Part shown: piece after piece, positions 4,930-64,000 of the stretch
Layout: the number at the start of each line of letters is the position of its first letter
How positions within the stretch are numbered: position 1 is the stretch's first letter
Assembly (NCBI GenBank): GCA_001775095.1
Contig: MFCA01000025.1
Location: forward strand, 22,994-86,993
Reading direction: 5' to 3'
DNA length: 64,000 nucleotides
DNA from: Candidatus Curtissbacteria bacterium RIFOXYA1_FULL_41_14
GTDB taxonomy: Bacteria > Patescibacteriota > Microgenomatia > Curtissbacterales > GWA2-41-24
Program-made: the position numbers and the translations under genes
The notes under the pieces: generated by a model
What the model saw: only the letters and a program-made list of their open reading frames with translations
The model's database searches: none
Told to the model about the DNA's origin: nothing

Positions 4930-5238
4930 ATATGTAGGAAGCTAATTCTATTGCAAAAATACCTCCAGGTCAAGAATTGTGAGTTTAACTATTCACCTTT
5001 CCCCAAATGGATATGTCATCGCGAGGCTACGTAGTAGCCGTGGCAATCTAAAAGATTGCTTCTCCAGCTGCGCCGGATCGCAATGACGATTTGGCTGGAC
5101 AAAACTGAATAGTTACTTGTGAGTTTGTTATTAGTTTGTTGAAAACCTCGTTATTCTTCGAACAATGTGAGAAGTCTGACAGTTCTCGCTACGGAGAGTA
5201 TCAGACGGTACTCTCCTACGCTCGAACAATATTGGTTT

Positions 5239-18876: not shown

Positions 18877-18890
18877 CCCGTCTCTTTTCT

Positions 18891-18981
18891 GTCATTCCGG
18901 ACCTGATCCGGAATCTATACTTATCTGGATTCCCGCCCTTCGGTCTTGAACTCAGGGTCGAAAGACTTTCGCGGGAATGAC
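18891..18981. repeat. Copy of the palindromic structured element (gtcattccgg ... ggaatgac) in the csoR-pduO intergenic region
   Basis: Has terminal inverted repeats, an inner hairpin ttccgg-acctgat-ccggaa, and the module 'cccttcggtcttgaactcagggtcgaaag' shared with the 43683 copy. Confidence 0.65.
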
Positions 18982-19001
18982 ATCTAATATATAATTCTGA
19001 C

Positions 19002-19670
19002 GTGAAGATTTATACAAAAACCGGGGATGGTGGTACCACTTCCCTGTTTGGTGCCCGAAGAGTGGATAAAAATTCGGCAAGGATTGCAGCTTATGGAGAA
19101 GTTGATGAGTTGAATTCGTTAATCGGCGTAATACTTGCAGAATTAACTCCATATCCTGACTGTCATTCTGGGGAGCGAAGCGACTCCAGAATCGATTCTG
19201 GACAAGTCCTTCGACCTCGCTCAGGACCGTTTAAGGATCGTGAGTTTAATCGAACGGCCAGAATGACAAAGCAGAAATTAATCATCAAGAAACTTTTGAG
19301 GATTCAGTCGGAACTTTTTGTTTTAGGTGCTGACTTAGCAACACCAGCTGATGTTAAAACCAAGGTGCCAAGAATCACTAAAAGATATATAACAAGACTT
19401 GAGGAAGAAATTGATTCATGGAGTGATAAATTACCCAAACTACGTAATTTTATATTGCCTGGTGGAAATAAGGTGGGATCAAAGCTTCATCTGGCAAGGT
19501 CGGTTGTCCGGCGTGCAGAAAGAGCAATTGTTGACCTTAATAGGCAAGAAAAAATTAACCAAAATGTATTAATTTACACCAACCGCCTCTCCGATTGGTT
19601 TTTTGTCGCAGCAAGATATATTAACAAACTGGAAAATATCAGGGAAAATATTTGGAAAGGCAGGGGTTAA
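19002..19670 (+). CDS. pduO: ATP:cob(I)alamin adenosyltransferase, PduO type
   Basis: GTG start. MKIYTKTGDGGTTSLFGARRVDKNSARIAAYGEVDELNS... and ...IQSELFVLGADLATP match the PduO/MMAB family. The ORF carries an extra ~36 aa between the first two helices, described in the next feature. Confidence 0.85.
   Translation: MKIYTKTGDGGTTSLFGARRVDKNSARIAAYGEVDELNSLIGVILAELTPYPDCHSGERSDSRIDSGQVLRPRSGPFKDREFNRTARMTKQKLIIKKLLRIQSELFVLGADLATPADVKTKVPRITKRYITRLEEEIDSWSDKLPKLRNFILPGGNKVGSKLHLARSVVRRAERAIVDLNRQEKINQNVLIYTNRLSDWFFVAARYINKLENIRENIWKGRG
19161..19268. mobile_element. Palindromic element copy (reverse orientation) inserted in-frame within pduO (108 nt = 36 codons)
   Basis: tgtcattctgg...ccagaatgaca with inner ccagaatcgattctgg. 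It aligns to the 43683 copy in reverse complement. It encodes PYPDCHSGERSDSRIDSGQVLRPRSGPFKDREFNRTARMTK, with no stop codon, in a loop region of PduO. Confidence 0.7.
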
Positions 19671-20770: not shown

Positions 20771-21001
20771 TTAAACTGAGTGAGAAATCCTCCCCCGATA
20801 TGTTGGGAGTGTAAAAGTCACCGAATCTAAATTTTTCTTTGAGAGCTTTTTGGAAGCGTCGAGAACTTCGATTCCAATTAGTTCTCTGCCTGCATAATCC
20901 ACAATAAGATCAGCACTCACCTCTTCTGTTCGAGTACTTTTCTTTTTATCCGAAAGATAAATATACATGGCATCTGCCACCGGATCATATGTGATTTTCA
21001 T
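20771..21001 (-). CDS. DUF2283-family protein (putative antitoxin paired with DUF4258)
   Basis: MKITYDPVADAMYIYLSDKK... is the characteristic DUF2283 N-terminus. It is 76 aa long. Confidence 0.7.
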   Translation of the reverse strand: MKITYDPVADAMYIYLSDKKKSTRTEEVSADLIVDYAGRELIGIEVLDASKKLSKKNLDSVTFTLPTYRGRISHSV

Positions 21002-21013
21002 AGTCAGTCTATT

Positions 21014-21250
21014 TTACTTTTCTGACCTTTTTTTCGCAAGCCAGTACAGAGTTACCACTACTAACTGTTTTTCTTCTTCGGATATTATTAATTTCAGGTA
21101 ATTTTTGCCGAAATTTTTTAAATAGATTTTTTTGTCTTCTCTTGCTGGCAATATTTTATCCGGGTTTTTAGCACATTCGTCCGCTAACTCTTTTTTAAGC
21201 TTGCGTTGTGCAAGCATTTCCAGAGCATGTTTTGTGTAAATAATAGTCAC
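21014..21250 (-). CDS. DUF4258-family protein (putative toxin)
   Basis: (V)TIIYTKHALEMLAQRKL... matches the DUF4258 pattern (I.FT.HA...M..R.I). The track ORF start (TTG at 21319) reads through the nrdJ 3' end. GTG at 21250 or ATG at 21217 is more likely. Confidence 0.6.
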   Translation of the reverse strand: MTIIYTKHALEMLAQRKLKKELADECAKNPDKILPAREDKKIYLKNFGKNYLKLIISEEEKQLVVVTLYWLAKKRSEK

Positions 21251-21254
21251 GTAC

Positions 21255-24080
21255 CTAGCTGCATTTGCTCCAGCCGCAGGAGGGATTGATGCATTGACGG
21301 CAGCCTTCGGCAAAGACAACCGGGCTTGCGCAATCTGGGCAAACTACAAATTTATTTTCAATTATTTTTTCCTGATGAATGCTACTTACCGAACCGGTGT
21401 CGATTTGGTACTTACCCCCGACTGGGATATTCATCTGGGTACTTTTGGTGTTTCCCTTTGTTAAACCATTACCACTTCCTGTTTGACCGTTGGTATAAGC
21501 TGATTTGGCCGGGTAGTTTGTATGGCCGTTGGTTAAGGGAGTTTTTACAATGGATTCGATTGGTTCGTCTTGCCCAACTACTGGAAGGGTAAGTTGTTTG
21601 GCTTTGGCAATCTCCAATAAGGATTTACCGACGGCATCAAAGGCGGAAAGGACGCTGTCCGGTCCGATACCATAGGGCGTACCACAGGATATCCCGACTA
21701 GGTCTGTAGCAACCTCCTCCAAGCTCGCACCATATTTCAGGGCGCGGGATGCCAATCTGCCTGTAACTTCAGCGGCACCAGCCACATAACCGCCTGTTTT
21801 ACCGATAGTTACAAAAACCTCAACCGGCATACCTTCAGCATCCCGAAATACGGATGTATAAACATATCCAACATCAGCTTTCTTGCGAACTCTCATTCCC
21901 ACAGCTTCAGTTGGGGTCGACTTTTTTCTAGGAATTTGTGGTTGTGGTTCTTGGTAAATACGTTTACCGGTAAGCTGGTCATAATAAGAGTTATCTTTTT
22001 TAACCTCCAGGACTTGCTTAATTCTTGAACCGTCGCGATAAATTGTAGTCATGCGGCAACCAAGTTCGTATGTCAGCCAATAAGCTTGCCGGACATCTTC
22101 GACAGTCGCTTCATTTGGAAAATTGATTGTTTTGGAAATTCCGTTGTCAGTGTATTTCTGGAAAGCTGCTTCCATACGGATATGATCAGCAGGAGAAATA
22201 TCTTGGGCAACTACAAAAACCCTTGTCAGATCCTGAGGTATCTCACCTAAATTCTGAATTGAACCACGATTCTCTTCAATCTTGGAAAGTAATTGGTCGG
22301 AATCAATCCCCTTATTTTTCAAGGCCCCTAAAAAGTAGGAGTTAGTATTAAAAAGTCTTTTACCCTCGATGGTATTTTTGGCAAATGTCAGCGCAAAATA
22401 CGGTTCAATACCGCTGGAACAATCAGCAAGCAGGGAAATTGTGCCGGTTGGAGCGATAGTTGTTCTGGCAGCATTTCTTGGATGAATTTTACCTGGTTGG
22501 TTGTAGATAGAATCTTTGAAGGATGGAAATACCCCGCGAACCTTTGCTAGGTTCACACTGGCATTGTCTGCTTCATCTTGAATGAACTTCATGACTTTTT
22601 CTGCCAAGGAGAAAGCTTCAAAAGTGTTATAGCCAATACCAAGTTTGGCCAGCATATCTGCCCAGCCCATAACTCCAAGGCCGATTCTTCTGATTTTTGA
22701 GGTCATCTGGTCAATTTCCGCAACCGGATATTCGTTCATATCAAGAACGTTATCCAAAAAGTGAACTGCCTTGTGGATTGTTTGTTTTAACTCTTGCCAG
22801 TCGATTCTTTCTTCGACCGGTTCATCATATTGAGCGGAAGCCCTTCGACTTTGCTCAGGATCTTCGACCCTTCGACTTTGCTCAGGATCTTCGACCCTTC
22901 GACTTTGCTCAGTGTCTTCGACTTCGTCTTTAACGAACTTGGAGAGATTAACAGAGCCTAAAGTACAGGCATCATATGGGAGAAGCGGCTGTTCTGCACA
23001 GGGATTGGTAGCTTCGATTTGGCCAAGTTTTGGAGTTGGATTAGCCCGGGAATCGTTGATTCTATCAATTAAAACCACTCCCGGATCTCCGTACTGCCAG
23101 GCAAGTCTGGTTATTAAATCAAAGACTCTTTTGGCATTGAGTTTGTCAGTAACTTCACCGGTCCGAGGATTAACAAGGTTGTATCCTTCCCCTTTATGTT
23201 TAGCACGACAAGCTTCATATAACTTTCTAACTGCTTCTTCAACGCGAACATTTTTAAGATCAAGGTCGCGAATTGTGTATGCTTCTCTTATTTCTTCTAT
23301 AATCTCGTTAATTTCCAACTCGCCATCCGCACCTCGACTACGCTCGGTGTCTTCGACAAACTTGGCATCTTTTTTGACTTTTTCCATAAATTCCTCAGTT
23401 ATACTTATGGAGATATTAAAGTTAGTTAGCGAAAACTCATCGACTTTGTGAACTGCAAAACGCAAAATATCAGGGTGTGTATAGTGAAGGATTCCCATAT
23501 TAGCACCGCGGCGAACTCCACCCTGTCTTATTTGCGAAGTTACGTCGTTATAGGCTTGCAAAAAAGCAACTGGACCGGTTGATTTGCCCTTTGAGGTACC
23601 AATAATATCGTCTTTTGGACGGAGCTTGGAAAAAGAAAAGCCTGTCCCACCGCCCATTTTATGAATCATTGCCATATCCCGCATCGTTCTGAGAATTGAT
23701 TCCATATCATCCTCAATAGGTAAGACAAAACAAGCTGAAAGCGATTGGCCGGTTTTACCGGAGTTGACTAAAGTCGGAGTATTGGGAATAAATCTCTGGG
23801 AAGCCATAAGTTTGTAAAATTCTTTGGCTGTCTTTTTGTGGATATTGCCTTCGTAAATTCTGTCGGCAGCGGCAATATAGTAGGCAACACGCCAGAAAAG
23901 TTTTTTTGGAGTTTCTACCGGTTCCCCTTTCTCGTTACGGAAAGAGTAACGGGTTTGGGCAATATAGGCAGCATTTTCGGATAGAGTCGGTTCAAATAAA
24001 TCTTTCGGGACAGCCGGAATCTTTCTGCCTATTGCGCGAACATCTTCTCTTGTGAATTTCTTCTTTAACACTTTTTTCAT
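21255..24080 (-). CDS. nrdJ: Ribonucleoside-diphosphate/triphosphate reductase, class II (adenosylcobalamin-dependent)
   Basis: A 941-aa protein with the class II RNR fold signature and a C-terminal Cys-rich zinc ribbon (CPDCASP...CRQCINPSCGWSKCS). It overlaps nrdR by 4 nt. It contains in-frame repeat insertions, described in the next feature. Confidence 0.9.
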   Translation of the reverse strand: MKKVLKKKFTREDVRAIGRKIPAVPKDLFEPTLSENAAYIAQTRYSFRNEKGEPVETPKKLFWRVAYYIAAADRIYEGNIHKKTAKEFYKLMASQRFIPNTPTLVNSGKTGQSLSACFVLPIEDDMESILRTMRDMAMIHKMGGGTGFSFSKLRPKDDIIGTSKGKSTGPVAFLQAYNDVTSQIRQGGVRRGANMGILHYTHPDILRFAVHKVDEFSLTNFNISISITEEFMEKVKKDAKFVEDTERSRGADGELEINEIIEEIREAYTIRDLDLKNVRVEEAVRKLYEACRAKHKGEGYNLVNPRTGEVTDKLNAKRVFDLITRLAWQYGDPGVVLIDRINDSRANPTPKLGQIEATNPCAEQPLLPYDACTLGSVNLSKFVKDEVEDTEQSRRVEDPEQSRRVEDPEQSRRASAQYDEPVEERIDWQELKQTIHKAVHFLDNVLDMNEYPVAEIDQMTSKIRRIGLGVMGWADMLAKLGIGYNTFEAFSLAEKVMKFIQDEADNASVNLAKVRGVFPSFKDSIYNQPGKIHPRNAARTTIAPTGTISLLADCSSGIEPYFALTFAKNTIEGKRLFNTNSYFLGALKNKGIDSDQLLSKIEENRGSIQNLGEIPQDLTRVFVVAQDISPADHIRMEAAFQKYTDNGISKTINFPNEATVEDVRQAYWLTYELGCRMTTIYRDGSRIKQVLEVKKDNSYYDQLTGKRIYQEPQPQIPRKKSTPTEAVGMRVRKKADVGYVYTSVFRDAEGMPVEVFVTIGKTGGYVAGAAEVTGRLASRALKYGASLEEVATDLVGISCGTPYGIGPDSVLSAFDAVGKSLLEIAKAKQLTLPVVGQDEPIESIVKTPLTNGHTNYPAKSAYTNGQTGSGNGLTKGNTKSTQMNIPVGGKYQIDTGSVSSIHQEKIIENKFVVCPDCASPVVFAEGCRQCINPSCGWSKCS
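21256..21282. repeat. 27-bp direct repeat (right copy) equal to the authentic 3' end of the nrdJ CDS
   Basis: Pairs with 20744-20770 at 26 of 27 positions and brackets the DUF4258/DUF2283 cassette. Confidence 0.8.
22841..22921. repeat. Three tandem in-frame copies of a 27-nt unit (ccttcgactttgctcaggatcttcgac) within nrdJ
   Basis: Encodes ...VEDTEQSRRVEDPEQSRRVEDPEQSRR... A further single copy sits at about 23332-23357 (VEDTERSRG). The same unit is in gltX and in the palindromic elements. Confidence 0.85.
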
Positions 24081-28130: not shown

Positions 28131-28233
28131 TCGAATATTATAGCATCAGATAAGGCTAAAACATTTAACAGCTGAGGGTATAAGTAGCGAGGGTACAGTT
28201 ACATTGGTGCGCAGTCGTGCTGAAATGGCCGGT

Positions 28234-30150: not shown

Positions 30151-30224
30151 TGGCTGCCGGACTAGGATTCGGACCTAGATAAGCAGATCCAGAATCTGCT
30201 GTCCTACCATTAGACGATCCGGCA
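30151..30224 (-). tRNA. tRNA-Gln (anticodon CUG)
   Basis: Hand-folded on the minus strand: acceptor TGCCGGA/TCCGGCA with U1-A72, discriminator G73, CCA encoded, D-stem GTCT/GGAC, anticodon arm GCAGA-TTCTGGA-TCTGC (CTG), T-arm CTAGG-TCCGAAT-CCTAG. The T-loop has C at position 55, which is unusual. Confidence 0.7.
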
Positions 30225-31289: not shown

Positions 31290-31434
31290 ATAAACTTCCG
31301 AGGGCTAAGAGCACTCGGTATTGTTCTTTAAGTTTACATGAGCGAGCAGATGTTTCCTCGGCTCGGAAGTATGTATTCGTTCTCACATTCATCCGTGGGC
31401 TAATAGTCCATGGTCTTCTGCGAACGAATATAAA
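31290..31434. repeat. Structured repeat family 2, copy A (about 145 nt)
   Basis: About 80% identical to 38156-38295. Shared blocks are ataaacttccgagggctaa, aagtttacatgag.gagcaga, aagtatgtattcg, cattcatccg and ctgcga.cgaatataaa. The hairpin ccgtgg...ccatgg corresponds to ccgagg...cctcgg in copy B with a compensatory change. Confidence 0.7.
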
Positions 31435-32278: not shown

Positions 32279-32779
32279 AGGTTTATGATAGCAAATTGAA
32301 GCTAATTAGAGCTGGCACAGGCTAAAGTTCTGAATACTCTTTACTCCAACAATCTTTCTCAGGACCGTCCCAAATCACCCCTGGATATTTGGTAAGTTCA
32401 GCCCAATTCGCGGTTCGGAAATCATCAACTACTCCCAGCACGACTGTGCACCCATGTAACCGTACCCTCGACATTCACCCTTCAAATACCCCGATAATGA
32501 GGCTACGGTTGCAAAAGCGTCCTTGTTTTCACCTTGTTAACGATACACCCCCAACCATAGTCTTGGTTTCCAGTAAGGTTTTTAGGGTTAATAGAAATTT
32601 AATCTCGCCCGCTTAGTGAAGAATGTATGGTAGAGTCTAAGAAAGAGGTCTAAGCTACGTTAATTGAAGTACCAGACTATCTATCGATAAGTCAGAATTT
32701 TGCTCGTGAGTTATCACTTGCGTCACAAGGGGAAACTACGAGCGTACCATTTATAAAAAATCCACTTCCAGAATACCCA

Positions 32780-38155: not shown

Positions 38156-38295
38156 ATAAACTTCCGAGGGCTAAAAGCCCTCGGTATTTGCTCTTCAAGT
38201 TTACATGAGAGAGCAGAATACCCTCGGAAGTATGTATTCGCTTTCGCATTCATCCGAGGATTAATAATCCTCGGTATTCTGCGAGCGAATATAAA
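38156..38295. repeat. Structured repeat family 2, copy B (about 140 nt), immediately 5' of the 38307 gene
   Basis: See copy A. It contains five ccgagg/cctcgg hexamers in alternating orientation, able to form mutually exclusive hairpins. It ends 11 nt before the ATG at 38307. Confidence 0.7.
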
Positions 38296-43607: not shown

Positions 43608-43682
43608 TTTAGATATGCATATCGTAACATTTTTTGTTATTTAACTTCTTCTTGTATAATGAGGGGCACGTTCCGCACGTCT

Positions 43683-43790
43683 GTCATTCTGGCCCTTCGG
43701 TCTTGAGCTCAGGGTCGAAAGGCTTGTCCAGAATCCATATCTTGATTAGATTCTGGAGTCGTCGAGTCAGACTCGACTCCCCAGAATGAC
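43683..43790. repeat. Full-length copy (108 nt) of the palindromic structured element in the dxr 5' region
   Basis: gtcattctgg-[cccttcggtcttgagctcagggtcgaaaggctt]-gtccagaatcc-atatcttgatta-gattctggagtc-gtcgagtcagactcgac-tccccagaatgac. It has nested inverted repeats and a -10-like tataat about 25 nt upstream. Confidence 0.8.
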
Positions 43791-43822
43791 AAATGGGAAA
43801 TCGTGATGACAAAAAGTACAGC

Positions 43823-46155: not shown

Positions 46156-46863
46156 TTAGCGAAGGACTATTCTTTTAAAGCCTTCTGCATATTTTGCCTT
46201 GATTTTTCTACCTGAACGCCTGGCCCACAATTTAATCATTTTTTCCATTTGGCTGGGGTCTTTAATCTGACTTTTATGTTCCTTAAGGGCCTTGATTTTT
46301 AAATCGAGAGTATCAGTGATATCAACAATAAAATTCGGCTTTTCAAAAGCAGTTAATAAGATTTCTTTGACTTTATGAGGTGCAAATCCTTTTTTCGCGA
46401 GGTCTGGAAATGTTAAGCGGTCGCGGGCTAGGGGGAAAACCGCAGACAAAGTGGCTTCGGCAGCTGCGATATGATCCGGGTGATTGATATAGCCGAGATC
46501 GATCGAGTAGCGTGCAGTTGGATCCAGGGTAACTACCAAGGCCGGTCTAATCTTTCGAATAACTTTAACTATCTCTTTTTTAAGTTCGAGTGTCGGTTCA
46601 AGCTCAGTATCGTGATGATTCAAAAAATATACTTTTTTGACCCCTAAAACTTTGGCCGCATCTTCCTGTTCTTTCCTTCGGATTTTGGCAAGTTTTGCCG
46701 ATGTCATTTTAGGATCATCGGAACCCTTGTTGCCATTTGTGCAAAGGAGGTAATAAACAACTGCCCCTTCCCCAATCCATTTGGCGATTGAGCCGGAAGC
46801 TATAAAATCAATGTCGTCTTGATGGGCTCCAACAGCAAGAATTACCTCATTTCTTTTTGACAT
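46156..46863 (-). CDS. PIG-L/LmbE-family N-acetylglucosaminyl deacetylase
   Basis: The AHQDDIDF and HPDH motifs of the LmbE-like fold. The start is probably MSKRNEV at 46863 rather than 46899. Confidence 0.7.
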   Translation of the reverse strand: MSKRNEVILAVGAHQDDIDFIASGSIAKWIGEGAVVYYLLCTNGNKGSDDPKMTSAKLAKIRRKEQEDAAKVLGVKKVYFLNHHDTELEPTLELKKEIVKVIRKIRPALVVTLDPTARYSIDLGYINHPDHIAAAEATLSAVFPLARDRLTFPDLAKKGFAPHKVKEILLTAFEKPNFIVDITDTLDLKIKALKEHKSQIKDPSQMEKMIKLWARRSGRKIKAKYAEGFKRIVLR

Positions 46864-48181
46864 AATTTTTAAGTCTGGTAATCGTCTCCTCTTGACCAAG
46901 TTGTTCCATAGATTCGTAAAGAGGAGGGGTAATTATACTACCTGAGACAATATTTCTGACAGCAGAAATTAACTCTATCCTGTCGATTTTTTTAAGGACA
47001 GCTGTTTCCTCGATTAATTTCCTGATGACAGAATTATTCCAAACCTTACTTTTTTCAAAAACTGAGATTACATCAGCAATCAATGAAACAGACAGTGATA
47101 TTTTGGGAATATTTGAAATTTTCGGGCGGTTGAAAAAGAAGTCCGCCATTTTTGGGAATTCCAACAATGTTTTCATCCGTTCCCTGACAAGTGGTATTAA
47201 AGATCTGATTTTTTCAAGATCATATTGGGGAAAAAGGGTTTTAATCTGTTTGGCAAGTCTGTCGTCTTTGATCTTTTTCATCCACTCCCGATTAAACCAA
47301 TTTAATTTTTCGCCGTTGAAGATCGGGCTGTTTTTGTTAAGGCGATCAAGCGAAAATTCGCGAGTTAAATCATTTAGAGAAAATATTTCTCTATCGTCTT
47401 TGGGCGCCCAACCAAGAAGGCTCAAAAAGTTAACTAGAGCTTCGGGCAGATAACCTTCATCTATATATTCGATAACTGATTTTGCACCTTCGCGCTTTGA
47501 AAGCTTTTTACGATCAGGTCCCAGGATTGGCGGCAGATGAATAAAAGCAGGATATAGCCACGAAAAGGCCTCGTACAAAAGAAGATGTTTTGGAGTTGAT
47601 GATATCCATTCGTCCCCGCGGATGACGTGGGAGATTTGCATATCGTGATCATCAACAACAGAGGCAAAGTGATACGTCGGGAAACCGTCGGATTTTACTA
47701 TGATAAAGTCTTCGAGTACATCGGATAAAAACTTAATTTCGCCATGAACCAAATCTTGCCATTTTAGGGTTTTTCCTTTTGGAATTTTGAAGCGCCAAGA
47801 TCCTTGGTCTTCATAAACCAGCTTCTGGTCTTTTAGAATTTTCAGGTGTTTCTGGTAAAGATCCAGTCTTCTGGACTGCTCGTAATACTCATCCCATTTC
47901 AAACCAAGAACCGAGAGGCTTTCTTGAATTATTTCTCGAGAGCCTGGAACTAGTCTTTTACGATCGGTGTCCTCAAGCCTGAGTATGAAGGTGCCATCCT
48001 GATTTTTTGCATACAAAAAATCAAAAAGGGCTGTTCTTATATTGCCGATATGAGGAACTCCAGTTGGCGACGGGGCATATCGAACACGGACCCTTCGACT
48101 ACGCTCAGGGTCTTCGACCTTTCGACTACGCTCAGGGTCTTCGACCTTTCGACTACGCTGCGGGTCTTCGGTCTTTTTCAT
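46847..48181 (-). CDS. gltX: Glutamyl-tRNA synthetase with an N-terminal repeat-encoded extension
   Basis: RVRYAPSPTGVPHIGNIRTA (HIGH) and KLSKREG (KMSKS). The first 30 residues, MKKTEDPQRSRKVEDPERSRKVEDPERSRR, are encoded by the 27-nt tandem repeat. There is no alternative start downstream of the repeat. Confidence 0.85.
   Translation of the reverse strand: MKKTEDPQRSRKVEDPERSRKVEDPERSRRVRVRYAPSPTGVPHIGNIRTALFDFLYAKNQDGTFILRLEDTDRKRLVPGSREIIQESLSVLGLKWDEYYEQSRRLDLYQKHLKILKDQKLVYEDQGSWRFKIPKGKTLKWQDLVHGEIKFLSDVLEDFIIVKSDGFPTYHFASVVDDHDMQISHVIRGDEWISSTPKHLLLYEAFSWLYPAFIHLPPILGPDRKKLSKREGAKSVIEYIDEGYLPEALVNFLSLLGWAPKDDREIFSLNDLTREFSLDRLNKNSPIFNGEKLNWFNREWMKKIKDDRLAKQIKTLFPQYDLEKIRSLIPLVRERMKTLLEFPKMADFFFNRPKISNIPKISLSVSLIADVISVFEKSKVWNNSVIRKLIEETAVLKKIDRIELISAVRNIVSGSIITPPLYESMEQLGQEETITRLKNYVKKK
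48092..48172. repeat. Three tandem in-frame copies of the 27-nt unit (ccttcgactacgctcagggtcttcgac) at the 5' end of gltX
   Basis: It is the same unit as in nrdJ with 2-3 substitutions, and it encodes VEDPERSRK repeats. Confidence 0.85.
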
Positions 48182-60077: not shown

Positions 60078-60170
60078 CTTTTAGCCTAAGCTTTGCTTGG
60101 AAAACACCAGTGTCATGTTGAATAAATTTAGTACCCCTTCTTTTACCATGCAAGTTGCAGGATTGTCAAT

Positions 60171-60242
60171 CCTTCGACTTCGCTCAGGATGACTCTGAGT
60201 TAAATCGAAGAGTCAATGGGTTCGACAAGCTCACCATTGACT
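60171..60242. repeat. Repeat-derived segment: one 20-nt core unit (ccttcgacttcgctcaggat) plus the hairpin gagtcaatgg...ccattgactc
   Basis: The core is identical in pattern to the nrdJ/gltX tandem unit. The 10-bp inverted repeat is separated by 14 nt. Confidence 0.6.
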
Positions 60243-60310
60243 CTTCAGTCAAATCGAGTGATTGATGGATCGGTGAGTCGGAGTGTTGTGTTAATATATG
60301 TCATAGAGTT

Positions 60311-61640: not shown

Positions 61641-61740
61641 GCTCTTATTCTAACATCTCTCATATTTTACTAGACAGGTTTAAATTAATAAGAAAGTGGG
61701 GTTTACTGCTAAGCGATTATAAGTTTATTATTAAATTAGG

Positions 61741-64000
61741 ATGACAGATGGAAAAGACGGCCGTTTTCCCCAAATAAATCAGGATTCATTACCGCCTGTT
61801 GGGAATACTTCCAATGTTTCCCAAGTTGATTCGCCTCCTGAAGAACCTCTTCCGGAAGCCTCACTTCCAACTGATCCTCCGCCTCCGATTCCCCAAAATC
61901 CCACTTCAGCTCTATTTCAATCGCCCCAAGCTCCTCAAGAAGAACCAGCACTGCCTGCATCTCCCTCCCAGTTTCCACCTATTCCCAGTGCAGGGGTTTC
62001 TGTCAATCAACCACCAGTCCCGCCTCCCGGTGAATCTCCATCGAGATTAGGTTTTCTAAAAAGTAAGCTGGTTTTGGCCTTTGTTTTGTTGGTTCTTGTT
62101 ATCGGTCTTGGGGCAGGAGGAGTCTTTTACTACTTAAACCAAAGAGTTACCAGCTACACATTACTGCCCGATGATACCCAGTTCTATTTGGGACTTTCCG
62201 TTAAAAAACACCCCCAAGTGCAAAAACTTTTGGATTTATCCAAAAAACTGCCGGGAGGAGAGAAGATGATTAAGTATCTTGATGATTGGCGAGGGGAAAT
62301 TTTTGGCACCCAAAAGGATCCGTTTAAAGAGATTCTAAATTTGGCAGAGGAGGAAATTTTCCTGGCTAAAATCTCCCCTGAAGACTCAAGCGTAGGGGGA
62401 AATGCTTTAGAACAGCTTGTTAATATTGTCGCCTTGAAAGATGCAAAAGAAGCCAAGGAAAAGCTTGCCAACCTTGAAGATGACGCAAACATTACAACAA
62501 CTAAAGAAGCCTATGGTAGTGCCAAAATTGCAAAGTTTGAACTTAAAAGTCAGAAGATGGATGAAAGTGCGCAAAGATTTTCCACCGGCCCTATTCCTTA
62601 CCAAGTGACCTTGCCTCTTTCTAAGTCAATCTTTTCGGTAAACCTCAATGAGTTTTTGGTAGCAGCAGAAAGAGAAAGCGATGTTAAAAAAATTATTGAT
62701 TTGGCAACAAACGCTAAGGAGAAAAAACTAAAAAGTATTGAGGAGGACGAAGAGCATAATGAAATTACCAGCCACTTTCCCAAAGAATATCTTTTGAAAT
62801 TTTATCAAAGGCAAGTTTTGGACCCGTTCTCAAACATAATGCCTGCAACAACTTTGCCACAGAATTTTTGGTTTGGCCAAAGTTACGATACGCGTGAAAG
62901 AAATAGTCAAGGTGATAACGTTTTTACAACCAAACGAGGCTTAACCATTGTTGCCCAAGACAATGGTGTCGATTTTACTTCTTATCAGCTAACCAAAAAA
63001 TCAGAAATTAGCGAAAAAATCGAGAATATGCTTAAGCACGGATTTTCCATGGAAAGTTCGCTGGCCAATAAGCTGCCGGCTACTTTCGACGGTAAATCGC
63101 CACTGTTTTACGGAGAGGCTAAAAACATTAGAGATTCGATTCAAGACCAGCTAAACCAATTGGAGGATGTTTCAAAAAATTCCAGTGACGAGCAGCAGAA
63201 GAAGGCTTTTGAGGATGCGAAAAAAGGCATCGAGGAATTTAAAAAGCAGATTAAAGAGGCTTTTCAGATTGATGTTGATGCGGATTTACTTTCCTGGATG
63301 GACCAGAATGCGGCCATGATTGTCGCCGCGGATTCCCAAAAAGCTCCGGAGATTTTGTTTGTCTTTGAGATCAAAGATCCTCAACTGGTGGAGCAAAAAT
63401 TGGTCAAATTTAGAATGGTGGATTTTATGGGTACCAGATTAAAACAAGCGCAAGACGCAAGTATGAAAAACGACGTCGGACAAATAGCGACAGCTCTTCA
63501 GGCGTATTACACTACACCAGGACAGGGTTTGTATCCGACTTCCTTGAATGATCTGGTATCTTCTGAGTACCTTAAAACCTTACCTAAACCAGCTTCAGGG
63601 GGAAATTACAATTACTTAAGATGTGATAACGGGACAGAAGCTGCCATTTTTGCAAAGTCTGAAGAAACCGGACGTTATTGGGCTTTTAGTTCCAAATTAG
63701 GAAGAGCCGGTTATATCGATGGAACAAATCCTCCTGTTGATTGCAATTTTAATGTTCTTAAACAGACTCCGGAAACTCTTTTCGACAAGCCGCGGATCGA
63801 ACCAGAAATTGAACCCTATCAAACCAGTAAGATCTATTCATTTCCCATTTATGATTATGAGGGCGATAAGTTTGCTTTTCGTTTTACGGTGACTGACAGT
63901 TTGACAATTTTTTCCGTCGGTGCTTCCAGCCAATCGCTGAAAGAACTTATTGATTTCCCAAAGGAGAGCGATAGTACCTTAATCAAAGATCCTCGCTGGA
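61741..64000 (+). CDS. Large membrane-anchored protein (over 753 aa, runs off the window end) with a Pro-rich N-terminus and a type IV pilin/pseudopilin-like (GspG-like) domain
   Basis: An open frame from the ATG at 61741 to the window end with no stop. It is not in the ORF track because it is unterminated. It has a Pro-rich segment, a TM helix (LVLAFVLLVLVIGLGAGGVFYYL), and 'GQIATALQAYYTTPGQGLYPTSLNDLVSSEYLKTLPKPASGGNYNY', which resembles pseudopilins. The antisense track ORFs 61736-62783 are spurious. Confidence 0.6.
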   Translation, partial: MTDGKDGRFPQINQDSLPPVGNTSNVSQVDSPPEEPLPEASLPTDPPPPIPQNPTSALFQSPQAPQEEPALPASPSQFPPIPSAGVSVNQPPVPPPGESPSRLGFLKSKLVLAFVLLVLVIGLGAGGVFYYLNQRVTSYTLLPDDTQFYLGLSVKKHPQVQKLLDLSKKLPGGEKMIKYLDDWRGEIFGTQKDPFKEILNLAEEEIFLAKISPEDSSVGGNALEQLVNIVALKDAKEAKEKLANLEDDANITTTKEAYGSAKIAKFELKSQKMDESAQRFSTGPIPYQVTLPLSKSIFSVNLNEFLVAAERESDVKKIIDLATNAKEKKLKSIEEDEEHNEITSHFPKEYLLKFYQRQVLDPFSNIMPATTLPQNFWFGQSYDTRERNSQGDNVFTTKRGLTIVAQDNGVDFTSYQLTKKSEISEKIENMLKHGFSMESSLANKLPATFDGKSPLFYGEAKNIRDSIQDQLNQLEDVSKNSSDEQQKKAFEDAKKGIEEFKKQIKEAFQIDVDADLLSWMDQNAAMIVAADSQKAPEILFVFEIKDPQLVEQKLVKFRMVDFMGTRLKQAQDASMKNDVGQIATALQAYYTTPGQGLYPTSLNDLVSSEYLKTLPKPASGGNYNYLRCDNGTEAAIFAKSEETGRYWAFSSKLGRAGYIDGTNPPVDCNFNVLKQTPETLFDKPRIEPEIEPYQTSKIYSFPIYDYEGDKFAFRFTVTDSLTIFSVGASSQSLKELIDFPKESDSTLIKDPRW

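Follow-up and report, generated by a model that had tools for sequence, protein, structure and literature searches.

The stretch of DNA analyzed here, referred to as the window, comprises 64,000 nucleotides (nt) of Candidatus Curtissbacteria bacterium RIFOXYA1_FULL_41_14 (contig MFCA01000025.1, positions 22,994 to 86,993 of the forward strand), and two of its genes, nrdJ and gltX, each contain an in-frame tandem array of three 27-nt units. These genes, their arrays and a solitary copy of the unit lie at the following positions of the window, with residues given in amino acids (aa):

21255..24080, minus strand: nrdJ, adenosylcobalamin-dependent ribonucleotide reductase, 941 aa, which hosts one array and one solo module.
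22842..22922, minus strand: nrdJ array, three 27-nt units, aa 387-413 (VEDTEQSRR, VEDPEQSRR, VEDPEQSRR).
22806..22841, minus strand: remainder of the lineage-specific NrdJ loop, ASAQYDEPVEER, aa 414-425, between the array and the conserved IDWQEL.
23331..23357, minus strand: solo 27-nt module in nrdJ (site A), aa 242-250 (VEDTERSRG).
46847..48181, minus strand: gltX, glutamyl-tRNA synthetase (GluRS), 444 aa, which hosts an N-terminal array.
48089..48169, minus strand: gltX array, three 27-nt units, aa 5-31 (EDPQRSRKV, EDPERSRKV, EDPERSRRV), right behind Met-Lys-Lys-Thr.

Tandem Repeats Finder detected two arrays with a period of 27 and 3.0 copies each in the 64-kb window, one in nrdJ (22841-22922, 96% matches, score 150) and the other in gltX (48089-48170, 94% matches, score 143). 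A search with the repeat pattern proposed in a first-pass annotation of this DNA, allowing up to three mismatches, produced six matches in the window, including the solo copy (23332-23356), versus 0.00 expected from 100 shuffles. The minus strand, which is the coding one, carries all the units of both arrays and the solo copy, which read VEDPE[QR]SR[RK]. The presence of in-frame 27-nt repeats in both genes, which that annotation had claimed, was therefore confirmed by Tandem Repeats Finder and by the intact open reading frames (ORFs).

The identity of both host genes is well supported. The nrdJ product contains the Pfam domains Ribonuc_red_lgN, Ribonuc_red_lgC and TSCPD, its best PDB match is the B12-dependent NrdJ of T. 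maritima (1xje, E 9e-94), and it is 100% identical to KKR57704.1 from the GW2011 groundwater genomes of Candidatus Curtissbacteria, which belong to the Microgenomates within the candidate phyla radiation (CPR). The gltX product is a class I GluRS with the Pfam domains tRNA-synt_1c and Anticodon_2; its best PDB matches are GluRS enzymes, and the alignments with them start at approximately query residue 24-31. It is 100% identical to the protein P0135, whose cluster at 90% identity or more contains KKR57128.1, also from Candidatus Curtissbacteria GW2011. In gltX, an in-frame TGA is located five codons upstream of the ATG at 48181, and no ATG, GTG or TTG was found when the sequence was read from this ATG to the RVRYAPSPTG...HIGN segment. 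Because no start codon is available downstream, the gltX array would have to be translated for GluRS to retain its HIGH motif, as the first reading of the sequence had also proposed.

On the opposite strand of the nrdJ array, a 78-aa antisense ORF (22697-22933, plus strand) reads PFDFAQDLR three times. We regard it as a spurious ORF of the type from which "hypothetical protein" entries arise; databases of hypothetical proteins frequently contain related "ghost peptides" (FDFAQG, LRLRSGQ, VILSEAKDL, FAQDDK).

To describe the variation of the arrays, we considered the proteins clustering at 90% identity or more with each host protein. NrdJ occurs in three length classes of 941 aa (29 contigs), 932 aa (12) and 923 aa (5), and GluRS in classes of 444 aa (37 contigs), 435 aa (20) and 426 aa (8). 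In both enzymes the classes differ by exactly 9 and 18 residues, that is, by whole units (3, 2 and 1). The DNA of nine variant loci, four of NrdJ (L001-L004) and five of GluRS (L203-L207), was compared with the window. Three of the NrdJ loci (L001-L003) were 100.0% identical to it over 5.8 kb except for one clean gap of 54 or 27 nt in the array, and the remaining one (L004) had 4 mismatches over 4.4 kb; the GluRS loci were 99.93-100% identical over 4.3 kb, likewise with clean array gaps. Given that the flanks are 99.9-100% identical and that the differences are whole units, the arrays are hypervariable, in-frame variable-number tandem repeats (VNTRs), and the length variants that had been predicted from the repeats alone thus exist in both proteins.

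The arrays have every property of a coding VNTR that we tested: the copies are arranged head to tail, the unit is a multiple of three (period 27) within intact ORFs, and whole-unit differences between conserved flanks were found in both genes, at the level of assemblies. Units are 93-100% identical to each other inside the nrdJ array and 81-96% inside the gltX array, and 70-89% identical between arrays. This closer likeness inside than between arrays shows that each array grew in place from one founder. In one assembly (GCA_001774755.1, L212 470-620), the deposited GluRS starts at MGNIRTALF, past the HIGH motif, even though the upstream ATG and a 3-unit array are intact.

The consensus of the 27-nt module is GTCGAAGAYNCTGAGCNNAGTCGAAGG. 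Several of its codons are minor ones in the 40%-GC window (GTC 23%, GAG 30%, CGA 8%, AGT 15%, AGG 19%), and the chance of the exact codon spelling under the codon usage of the window is approximately 1e-6. Modules located by position in orthologues share the codons GTC GAA GAY CCT GAG CRA AGT CGA AGG even when the peptide is altered. Fifteen orthologue modules matched the consensus with identities of 0.77, 0.87 and 0.80 at the first, second and third codon position, and the codon changes counted over 17 matches were 58 non-synonymous versus 6 synonymous; the host gene compared with those same orthologues showed identities of 0.84-0.87 at positions 1+2 and 0.46-0.51 at position 3. The even decay, together with a position-3 identity above that of the host gene, indicates that the modules are younger than the divergence of the host genes, or homogenized against other copies. 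From this pattern, the module is defined by its DNA and not by its peptide, which is not under detectable purifying selection.

The module has no stop codon in five of its six frames. Among the matches listed, 18 of 24 in low-GC loci with long ORFs use the frame VEDPERSRR, a bias with a binomial P of 1e-8 against five open frames (6.5e-6 after orthologous duplicates were collapsed). This is by far the most hydrophilic frame, with a grand average of hydropathy of −2.47 (−0.12 to −0.62 for the other frames), and the resulting peptide, VEDPE[QR]SRR, contains proline and is charge-balanced, with as many acidic as basic residues.

In the alignment of NrdJ with 1xje, one block ends at query residue 387 (T. 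maritima 348) and the next starts at query residue 426 (T. maritima 349). The 38 residues from 388 to 425, directly after the strand with the conserved ACTLGSVNLSKF motif, consequently have no T. maritima counterpart, and orthologues either lack their last part (aa 414-425) or vary in it. Across 120 orthologues from Curtissbacteria, 61-90% identical, the array-bearing loop ranges from approximately 5 residues (KFVQ-KEG-INW) to more than 40 and holds 0, 1, 2 or 3 copies of [VI]xD[PT]E[QR]SR[RSG]; about half of these 120 closest orthologues have something like [VI]xD[PT]E[QR]SR there. In the neighbor-joining tree of the NrdJ orthologues, presence and absence are interleaved; for instance, P0058 has two modules in the loop and P0065, 93% identical, has none. 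Based on this variable length, the array sites may be permissive landing pads. Among NrdJs of other CPR lineages, approximately 50% identical, the same loop is filled in frame by other repeat families: VIASEAKQS...APRNDI (whose DNA is the full hairpin GTCATTGCGAGC...GCTCCTCGCAATGAC), VLRQAQDE, PLTPSL and KSPFDKGD. These were found in the following contigs:

L153, L155, L192, L141, L145 and L185: NrdJ loci with other loop families, on other CPR metagenome contigs.

Throughout CPR, short repeats would then have a general landing pad in the NrdJ loop. A second recurring peptide, approximately (K)SL(P/S)SEAxAKEG, was noticed in the C-terminal part of the array-bearing loop of many orthologues (P0003, P0045, P0058, P0060, P0074, P0075, P0080, P0118), where it may represent either a native helix or a further family of repeats.

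A second NrdJ site, around residues 240-260, contains the module in many orthologues, at an exact position that depends on the lineage. At site A, the window reads TTT / GTC GAA GAC ACC GAG CGT AGT CGA GGT / GCG GAT, and the closest relative (P0002, locus L208, 88%) reads TTT / ACG GAT, which in a codon alignment is a clean 27-nt indel. The site is filled in the more distant P0003-P0008, so an empty P0002 among them implies either precise loss or repeated gain at one bond. Microhomology between the insertion sites and the terminal box of the module, in the form of a native GTNGAAG, may be present at NrdJ site B (GTC GA- after Phe, with GTCGAAGAA downstream), but site A speaks against it, since the insertion there is clean and the closest empty relative has no common box. 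Most GluRS orthologues begin M-x-x-VRVRYAPSPTG and have no insert, and approximately 15 of the 120 listed have N-terminal inserts of the 27-mer repeat family, sometimes in other frames (TDPERSRR, IDPERSRG, SLSKG, RPELVE, PEPVLALSD). The module peptide is thus not a universal native motif, given the many NrdJ and GluRS orthologues that lack it, and the proposal that such peptides are tolerated in core enzymes agrees with a loop and an N-terminus that hold 0-3 units, in a patchy manner, across orthologues approximately 70% identical.

A scan of one genome per species (596 Gb) with the pattern TCGAAGANNCTGAGCNNAGTCGAA, which has 20 specified bases, revealed at least 118 loci, versus approximately 1 expected by chance according to our own estimate. 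Within CPR, the matches were in Curtiss-, Davies-, Levy-, Woese-, Staskawicz-, Uhr-, Peri- and Adlerbacteria and in Saccharibacteria; outside it, they were in Auribacterota, the PVC group, Planctomycetota, Acidobacteriota and Nitrospirales, and also in Gammaproteobacteria, Opitutaceae, Lentisphaerae and Ignavibacteria. Among the matches listed, the 27-mer is near-identical in more than 10 phyla, with the extended consensus GTCGAAGAYCCTGAGCGNAGTCGAAGG(G). In high-GC phyla the module is mostly found within longer hairpin repeats and in inverted pairs, and many of its copies in low-GC CPR genomes are solitary inserts within real genes. Pfam-confirmed hosts of solo in-frame copies include AIR synthase-like, thymidylate synthase ThyA (N-terminus), GT4 glycosyltransferase, nucleotidyltransferase, LeuRS, RadC (N-terminus), ProRS-like anticodon domain, RarA/MgsA, DsbD/HMA and M24 peptidase proteins. 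A further GluRS with the module at its N-terminus, MKKVEDPVADTERSRSEHNRRIEDPEHSRKVRVRIAPSPTG, was read from the sequence of locus L110. Beyond what the first-pass annotation had noted, the 27-mer is therefore a cross-phylum, DNA-defined module that is present solo and in frame in many housekeeping genes.

In the plasmid collection the only match was a 24-nt tandem variant, GTTRACCCTGAGCGAAGCCRAAGG, present in two copies in plasmid p1 of Microcystis aeruginosa NIES-2481 (61719-61772; L209 597-650), inside annotated coding sequence (overlapping hypothetical and TolC-family genes). Since this cultured cyanobacterium carries a relative, the core is not confined to metagenome-assembled genomes. No match to the module was found in the phage collection, and a 5-unit synthetic peptide, a short and repetitive query, retrieved nothing from the database at E up to 10. 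In the searchable literature, we found neither the peptide and DNA strings of the module in full text nor any account of the 27-mer or of repeats inserted in frame into CPR proteins.

The window also holds 93-140-nt elements made of several hairpins closed by a terminal stem, with the termini GTCATTCYGG...CCRGAATGAC and fold z-scores of −2.7 to −5.5:

19161..19268, plus strand: 108-nt palindromic element TGTCATTCTGG...CCAGAATGACA with the box TTCGACCTCGCTCAGG; fold z −4.6.
18890..18982, plus strand: intergenic palindromic element TGTCATTCCGG...CGGGAATGACA, whose copy of the box has diverged; fold z −2.65.
43682..43791, plus strand: intergenic palindromic element between a major facilitator superfamily transporter gene and dxr (families D9 and D12); an 11-bp stem at the termini encloses its three hairpins; z −5.5; a truncated relative is at 1-74.
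60158..60292, plus strand: intergenic composite hairpin element with the exact box TTCGACTTCGCTCAGGATGAC (family D2); fold z −3.7.

The first of these, of 36 codons, is in frame in the ORF of a PduO-type cobalamin adenosyltransferase (19002-19670, plus strand), where it encodes PDCHSGERSDSRIDSGQVLRPRSGPFKDREFNRTARMT. Residues 47-91 of this protein match only six residues (53-58) of the L. reuteri PduO (3ci1), so that the element adds approximately 39 residues between two helices. The only part that the arrays share with the palindromic elements is a box of approximately 15 nt, TTCGACNNNGCTCAG, which is exact at 19210-19224 and 60173-60187; the exact box TTCGACNNNGCTCAGG is present in two of the elements of the window. 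The arrays in nrdJ and gltX are not palindromic and have no significant structure (fold z −1.9 and −1.4, respectively). Accordingly, the earlier proposal that the repeat unit is the same core as that of the palindromic elements stands for this box and does not extend to the hairpin architecture, which the arrays lack.

A search against Rfam 15, at the gathering threshold and at E up to 1, gave no match on either the palindromic elements or the arrays; apart from the two tRNA genes, the sole matches at E up to 1 were two below threshold, to STnc150 and mascRNA, neither of them near an array or element. A hammerhead-like reading of CUGAGCG...GUC was discarded, since its core positions misfit by eye and Rfam gave no match. 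We also discarded DNA-uptake sequences as the main explanation, because the density is only approximately 1 per 5 kb and because uptake sequences arise through recombination and point mutation, a mode of spread that does not produce tandem arrays or insertions of 27 nt.

Other features of the window were recorded as well. Directly downstream of nrdJ are small genes with DUF4258 (21014-21319, minus strand) and DUF2283 (20771-21001, minus strand), possibly a toxin-antitoxin pair; the ORF of the first one overlaps the last 65 nt of nrdJ. An intergenic hairpin, TGTCATCGCGAGG...GGATCGCAATGACG, lies at 5013-5089 between greA and a tRNA gene and belongs to the related GTCATTGCGAGC repeat type. An unrelated dispersed repeat of approximately 140 nt occurs in two copies (31290-31434 and 38156-38295) that are 85-94% identical and have short hairpins, CCGAGGGCTAAnAGCnCTCGG. 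Finally, a 35-nt inverted repeat (28188-28222 and 32436-32470, 91% complementary, arms 4.2 kb apart) encloses several genes and the tRNA gene at 30154-30224, and could mark a mobile or invertible segment.

From the results described above, we consider it likely that the arrays are coding VNTRs that the cell tolerates as passengers, hypervariable and in frame, and built from one DNA-defined 27-nt module. This module appears to belong to a dispersed repeat family common to many bacterial phyla. According to the history that we propose, each gene would have received a single module at a position where additional residues are harmless: in NrdJ, the loop right behind the strand with the active-site motif ACTLGS, and in GluRS, the first residues ahead of the Rossmann fold. 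Each module was subsequently amplified in place, as the likeness within arrays shows, and the turnover of whole 27-nt units in the arrays, which is visible in the variants, now outpaces the accrual of point mutations, most likely through slipped-strand mispairing or unequal recombination. The peptide would be a passenger, presumably disordered and on the protein surface, and selection would filter only the frame, the insertion site and the choice of the most hydrophilic of the five open frames, a view based on the frame bias and the decay pattern. For the first arrival, trans-mobilization, templated repair and gene conversion from other genomic copies are candidate routes. Repeated gain or homogenization would be needed, because the modules are better conserved than the host gene at synonymous positions.

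Several points weigh against this interpretation. The near-identity of the 27-mer across phyla is unexpected for a purely neutral passenger and hints at some sequence-specific process or DNA-level constraint. No transposase, RAYT (Y1 transposase) or reverse transcriptase gene is present among the approximately 60 ORFs of the window. Slippage is deduced solely from clean unit-sized indels, the copy-number variants come exclusively from short-read assemblies, and translation of the units is predicted from the reading frames. The three-dimensional placement of the NrdJ array was taken from the sequence alignment to 1xje, and an AlphaFold2 model of NrdJ (26-sequence alignment), with a mean pLDDT of 47, was too poor to locate the loop. 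In addition, a run of N in the older RIFCSP assembly GCA_001775215.1 coincides exactly with the nrdJ array (L210 1881-1895), which leaves a truncated 494-aa "hypothetical protein" and indicates that the region is hard for some assemblers.

That run of N is what could be said in favor of a short-read mis-assembly across a dispersed repeat as the origin of the arrays or of their copy-number differences. We judge this extremely unlikely, because identical 3-unit arrays were recovered in independent projects and by different assemblers (GW2011, RIFCSP and MEGAHIT k141 contigs), every variant preserves the reading frame of essential genes, and diverged copies are present at matching sites in orthologues 60-80% identical. 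Moreover, the contigs of the variant loci bear the name prefix k141, and a 141-nt k-mer would cover the entire 81-nt array, which makes collapse unlikely. The arrays of the window are not assembly chimeras. Hardly more probable is that the peptide is an ancestral, hypervariable loop of the Curtissbacteria NrdJ and GluRS that merely resembles genomic repeats. Such a loop would fit with the similar peptide in about half of the closest NrdJ orthologues; nevertheless, it is missing from the T. maritima enzyme and from many orthologues, the codon spelling is kept while the peptide changes, and close relatives differ by a clean 27-nt presence or absence. The occurrence of the 27-mer in unrelated genes and phyla already contradicts this explanation. 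The first-pass annotation had also raised the idea that the modules are domesticated, and in this case the peptide would, for instance, provide NrdJ with an interaction surface or a flexible linker, or GluRS with an appendage that binds tRNA or a partner, with copy number tuning function. The fact that in many Curtissbacteria the module recurs at the same two sites of NrdJ and at the N-terminus of GluRS, the strong preference for one reading frame, and a copy number that is never zero among the members of the clusters at 90% identity or more that are readable at the site are compatible with it. In spite of this, we find domestication improbable: there is no synonymous excess and the codon positions decay alike, presence is patchy even between 93%-identical proteins, copy number is unconstrained, and the decay pattern argues instead for repeated gain or gene conversion. 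In addition, the net charge of the GluRS unit is approximately zero, unlike that of the basic tRNA-binding appendages known among the extensions of eukaryotic aminoacyl-tRNA synthetases, and the filling of the NrdJ loop by unrelated repeat families in other CPR points to a permissive site, not to a needed peptide.

A function at the level of DNA or RNA, incidentally translated, deserves more attention, although we still regard it as unlikely. The 27-mer would then be a binding or recognition site (for a recombinase, a nuclease, the uptake machinery or a regulator) kept by nucleotide-level selection. The near-identity in more than 10 phyla, the position-3 identity of 0.80, the use of minor codons, the location inside larger hairpin repeats and inverted pairs in other phyla, and the discrete 27-nt indel at site A are in agreement with this possibility. 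On the other side, the arrays have no significant secondary structure or Rfam match, the density is modest (7 units and approximately 6 related elements in 64 kb), a dosage-sensitive site would not be expected to amplify in tandem or to vary freely in copy number, no candidate partner protein was found in the window, and recurrent insertion or gene conversion accounts equally well for the conservation of the DNA. Were there such a function, which we doubt, it would coexist with arrays that are tolerated as passenger VNTRs. It is also conceivable, at a similarly low probability, that GTCGAAGAYNCTGAGCNNAGTCGAAGG acts as an insertion unit, discrete and shared horizontally, which could make it the smallest mobile module described. 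In that event, GTCGAAGAYNCTGAGCNNAGTCGAAGG might be inserted and precisely removed by sequence-specific machinery, or spread by templated repair or gene conversion; tentatively, its 9-codon length and its hydrophilic, charge-balanced preferred frame could explain how it colonizes coding sequences. The clean 27-nt presence or absence at one phosphodiester bond between close relatives, the position-3 identity of approximately 0.8 versus approximately 0.5 for the host gene, the patchy gain and loss, and the distribution over more than 10 phyla are all compatible with an insertion unit.

Regarding known systems, classical coding VNTRs are mostly found in surface or contingency genes and have locus-specific units. 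The arrays described here resemble coding VNTRs and minisatellites in their head-to-tail copies, in a unit that is a multiple of three, and in the gain or loss of whole units between near-identical strains, a pattern compatible with slipped-strand mispairing. They differ in that the unit is dispersed, genome-wide and cross-phylum, and in that the hosts are core enzymes, a ribonucleotide reductase and GluRS. REP elements are extragenic imperfect palindromes, specific to a species or genus. Like REP, REPIN and BIME sequences, the module is a short unit (20-40 nt), GC-rich with respect to the genome, that is arranged in singlets, inverted pairs and clusters, and in other phyla it is present in inverted pairs inside hairpins; unlike them, it is intragenic here, lacks significant self-complementarity, is distributed across phyla, and is accompanied by no RAYT gene among the approximately 60 ORFs of the window.

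The closest analogue is the Rickettsia palindromic elements (RPEs), selfish DNA inserted in frame in housekeeping genes (PMC10969869). As with RPEs (Ogata et al.), a dispersed repeat is found in frame in many unrelated housekeeping genes and is translated as an extra peptide where fold and function permit; such in-frame insertions are present in nrdJ, gltX, the PduO gene and at least 10 host families elsewhere. RPEs are palindromic, approximately 100-150 bp long and restricted to Rickettsia, whereas the unit studied here has 27 nt, is not palindromic, is tandemly amplified and reaches more than 10 phyla. Only the separate 108-nt element in the PduO gene, the closest to an RPE in form, has the size and palindromic structure expected, and therefore we do not class the arrays as RPE-type. 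The in-frame repeats are also reminiscent of intragenic MITEs (transposable elements of the miniature inverted-repeat kind), which are non-autonomous, contain open frames and in some cases form in-frame fusions with ORFs of the host, as described for ERIC, pneumococcal BOX and the Anabaena MITEs (PMC10969869). The 93-110-nt elements of the window, with the inverted termini GTCATTCYGG and CCRGAATGAC, are MITE-like, and no clear target-site duplication was seen by eye in these larger elements. The 27-nt unit has neither terminal inverted repeats nor a recognizable target-site duplication, falls outside the 50-500 bp range of MITEs and is an order of magnitude shorter.

These observations indicate that CPR genomes of approximately 1 Mb still carry selfish or passenger DNA inside the most essential enzymes, and that certain loops and N-termini are recurrent landing pads. 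They would extend the paradigm of selfish DNA in coding genes, established in Rickettsia, to a very different lineage and to a far smaller, tandemly amplifying unit. In practical terms, the arrays break assemblies, as in the run of N mentioned above, and mislead annotation, as in the deposited RefSeq/GenBank start of GluRS, placed past the catalytic HIGH motif, and in the antisense PFDFAQDLR ORF; they may also be useful as high-resolution strain markers in groundwater Curtissbacteria that are otherwise clonal over kilobases. No explanation for the near-identity of the 27-mer across phyla was found in the searchable literature, and if a dedicated mechanism underlies it, that mechanism would be new. 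If the module were indeed an insertion unit, it would serve across CPR proteomes as a general source of variation in the length of loops and N-termini.

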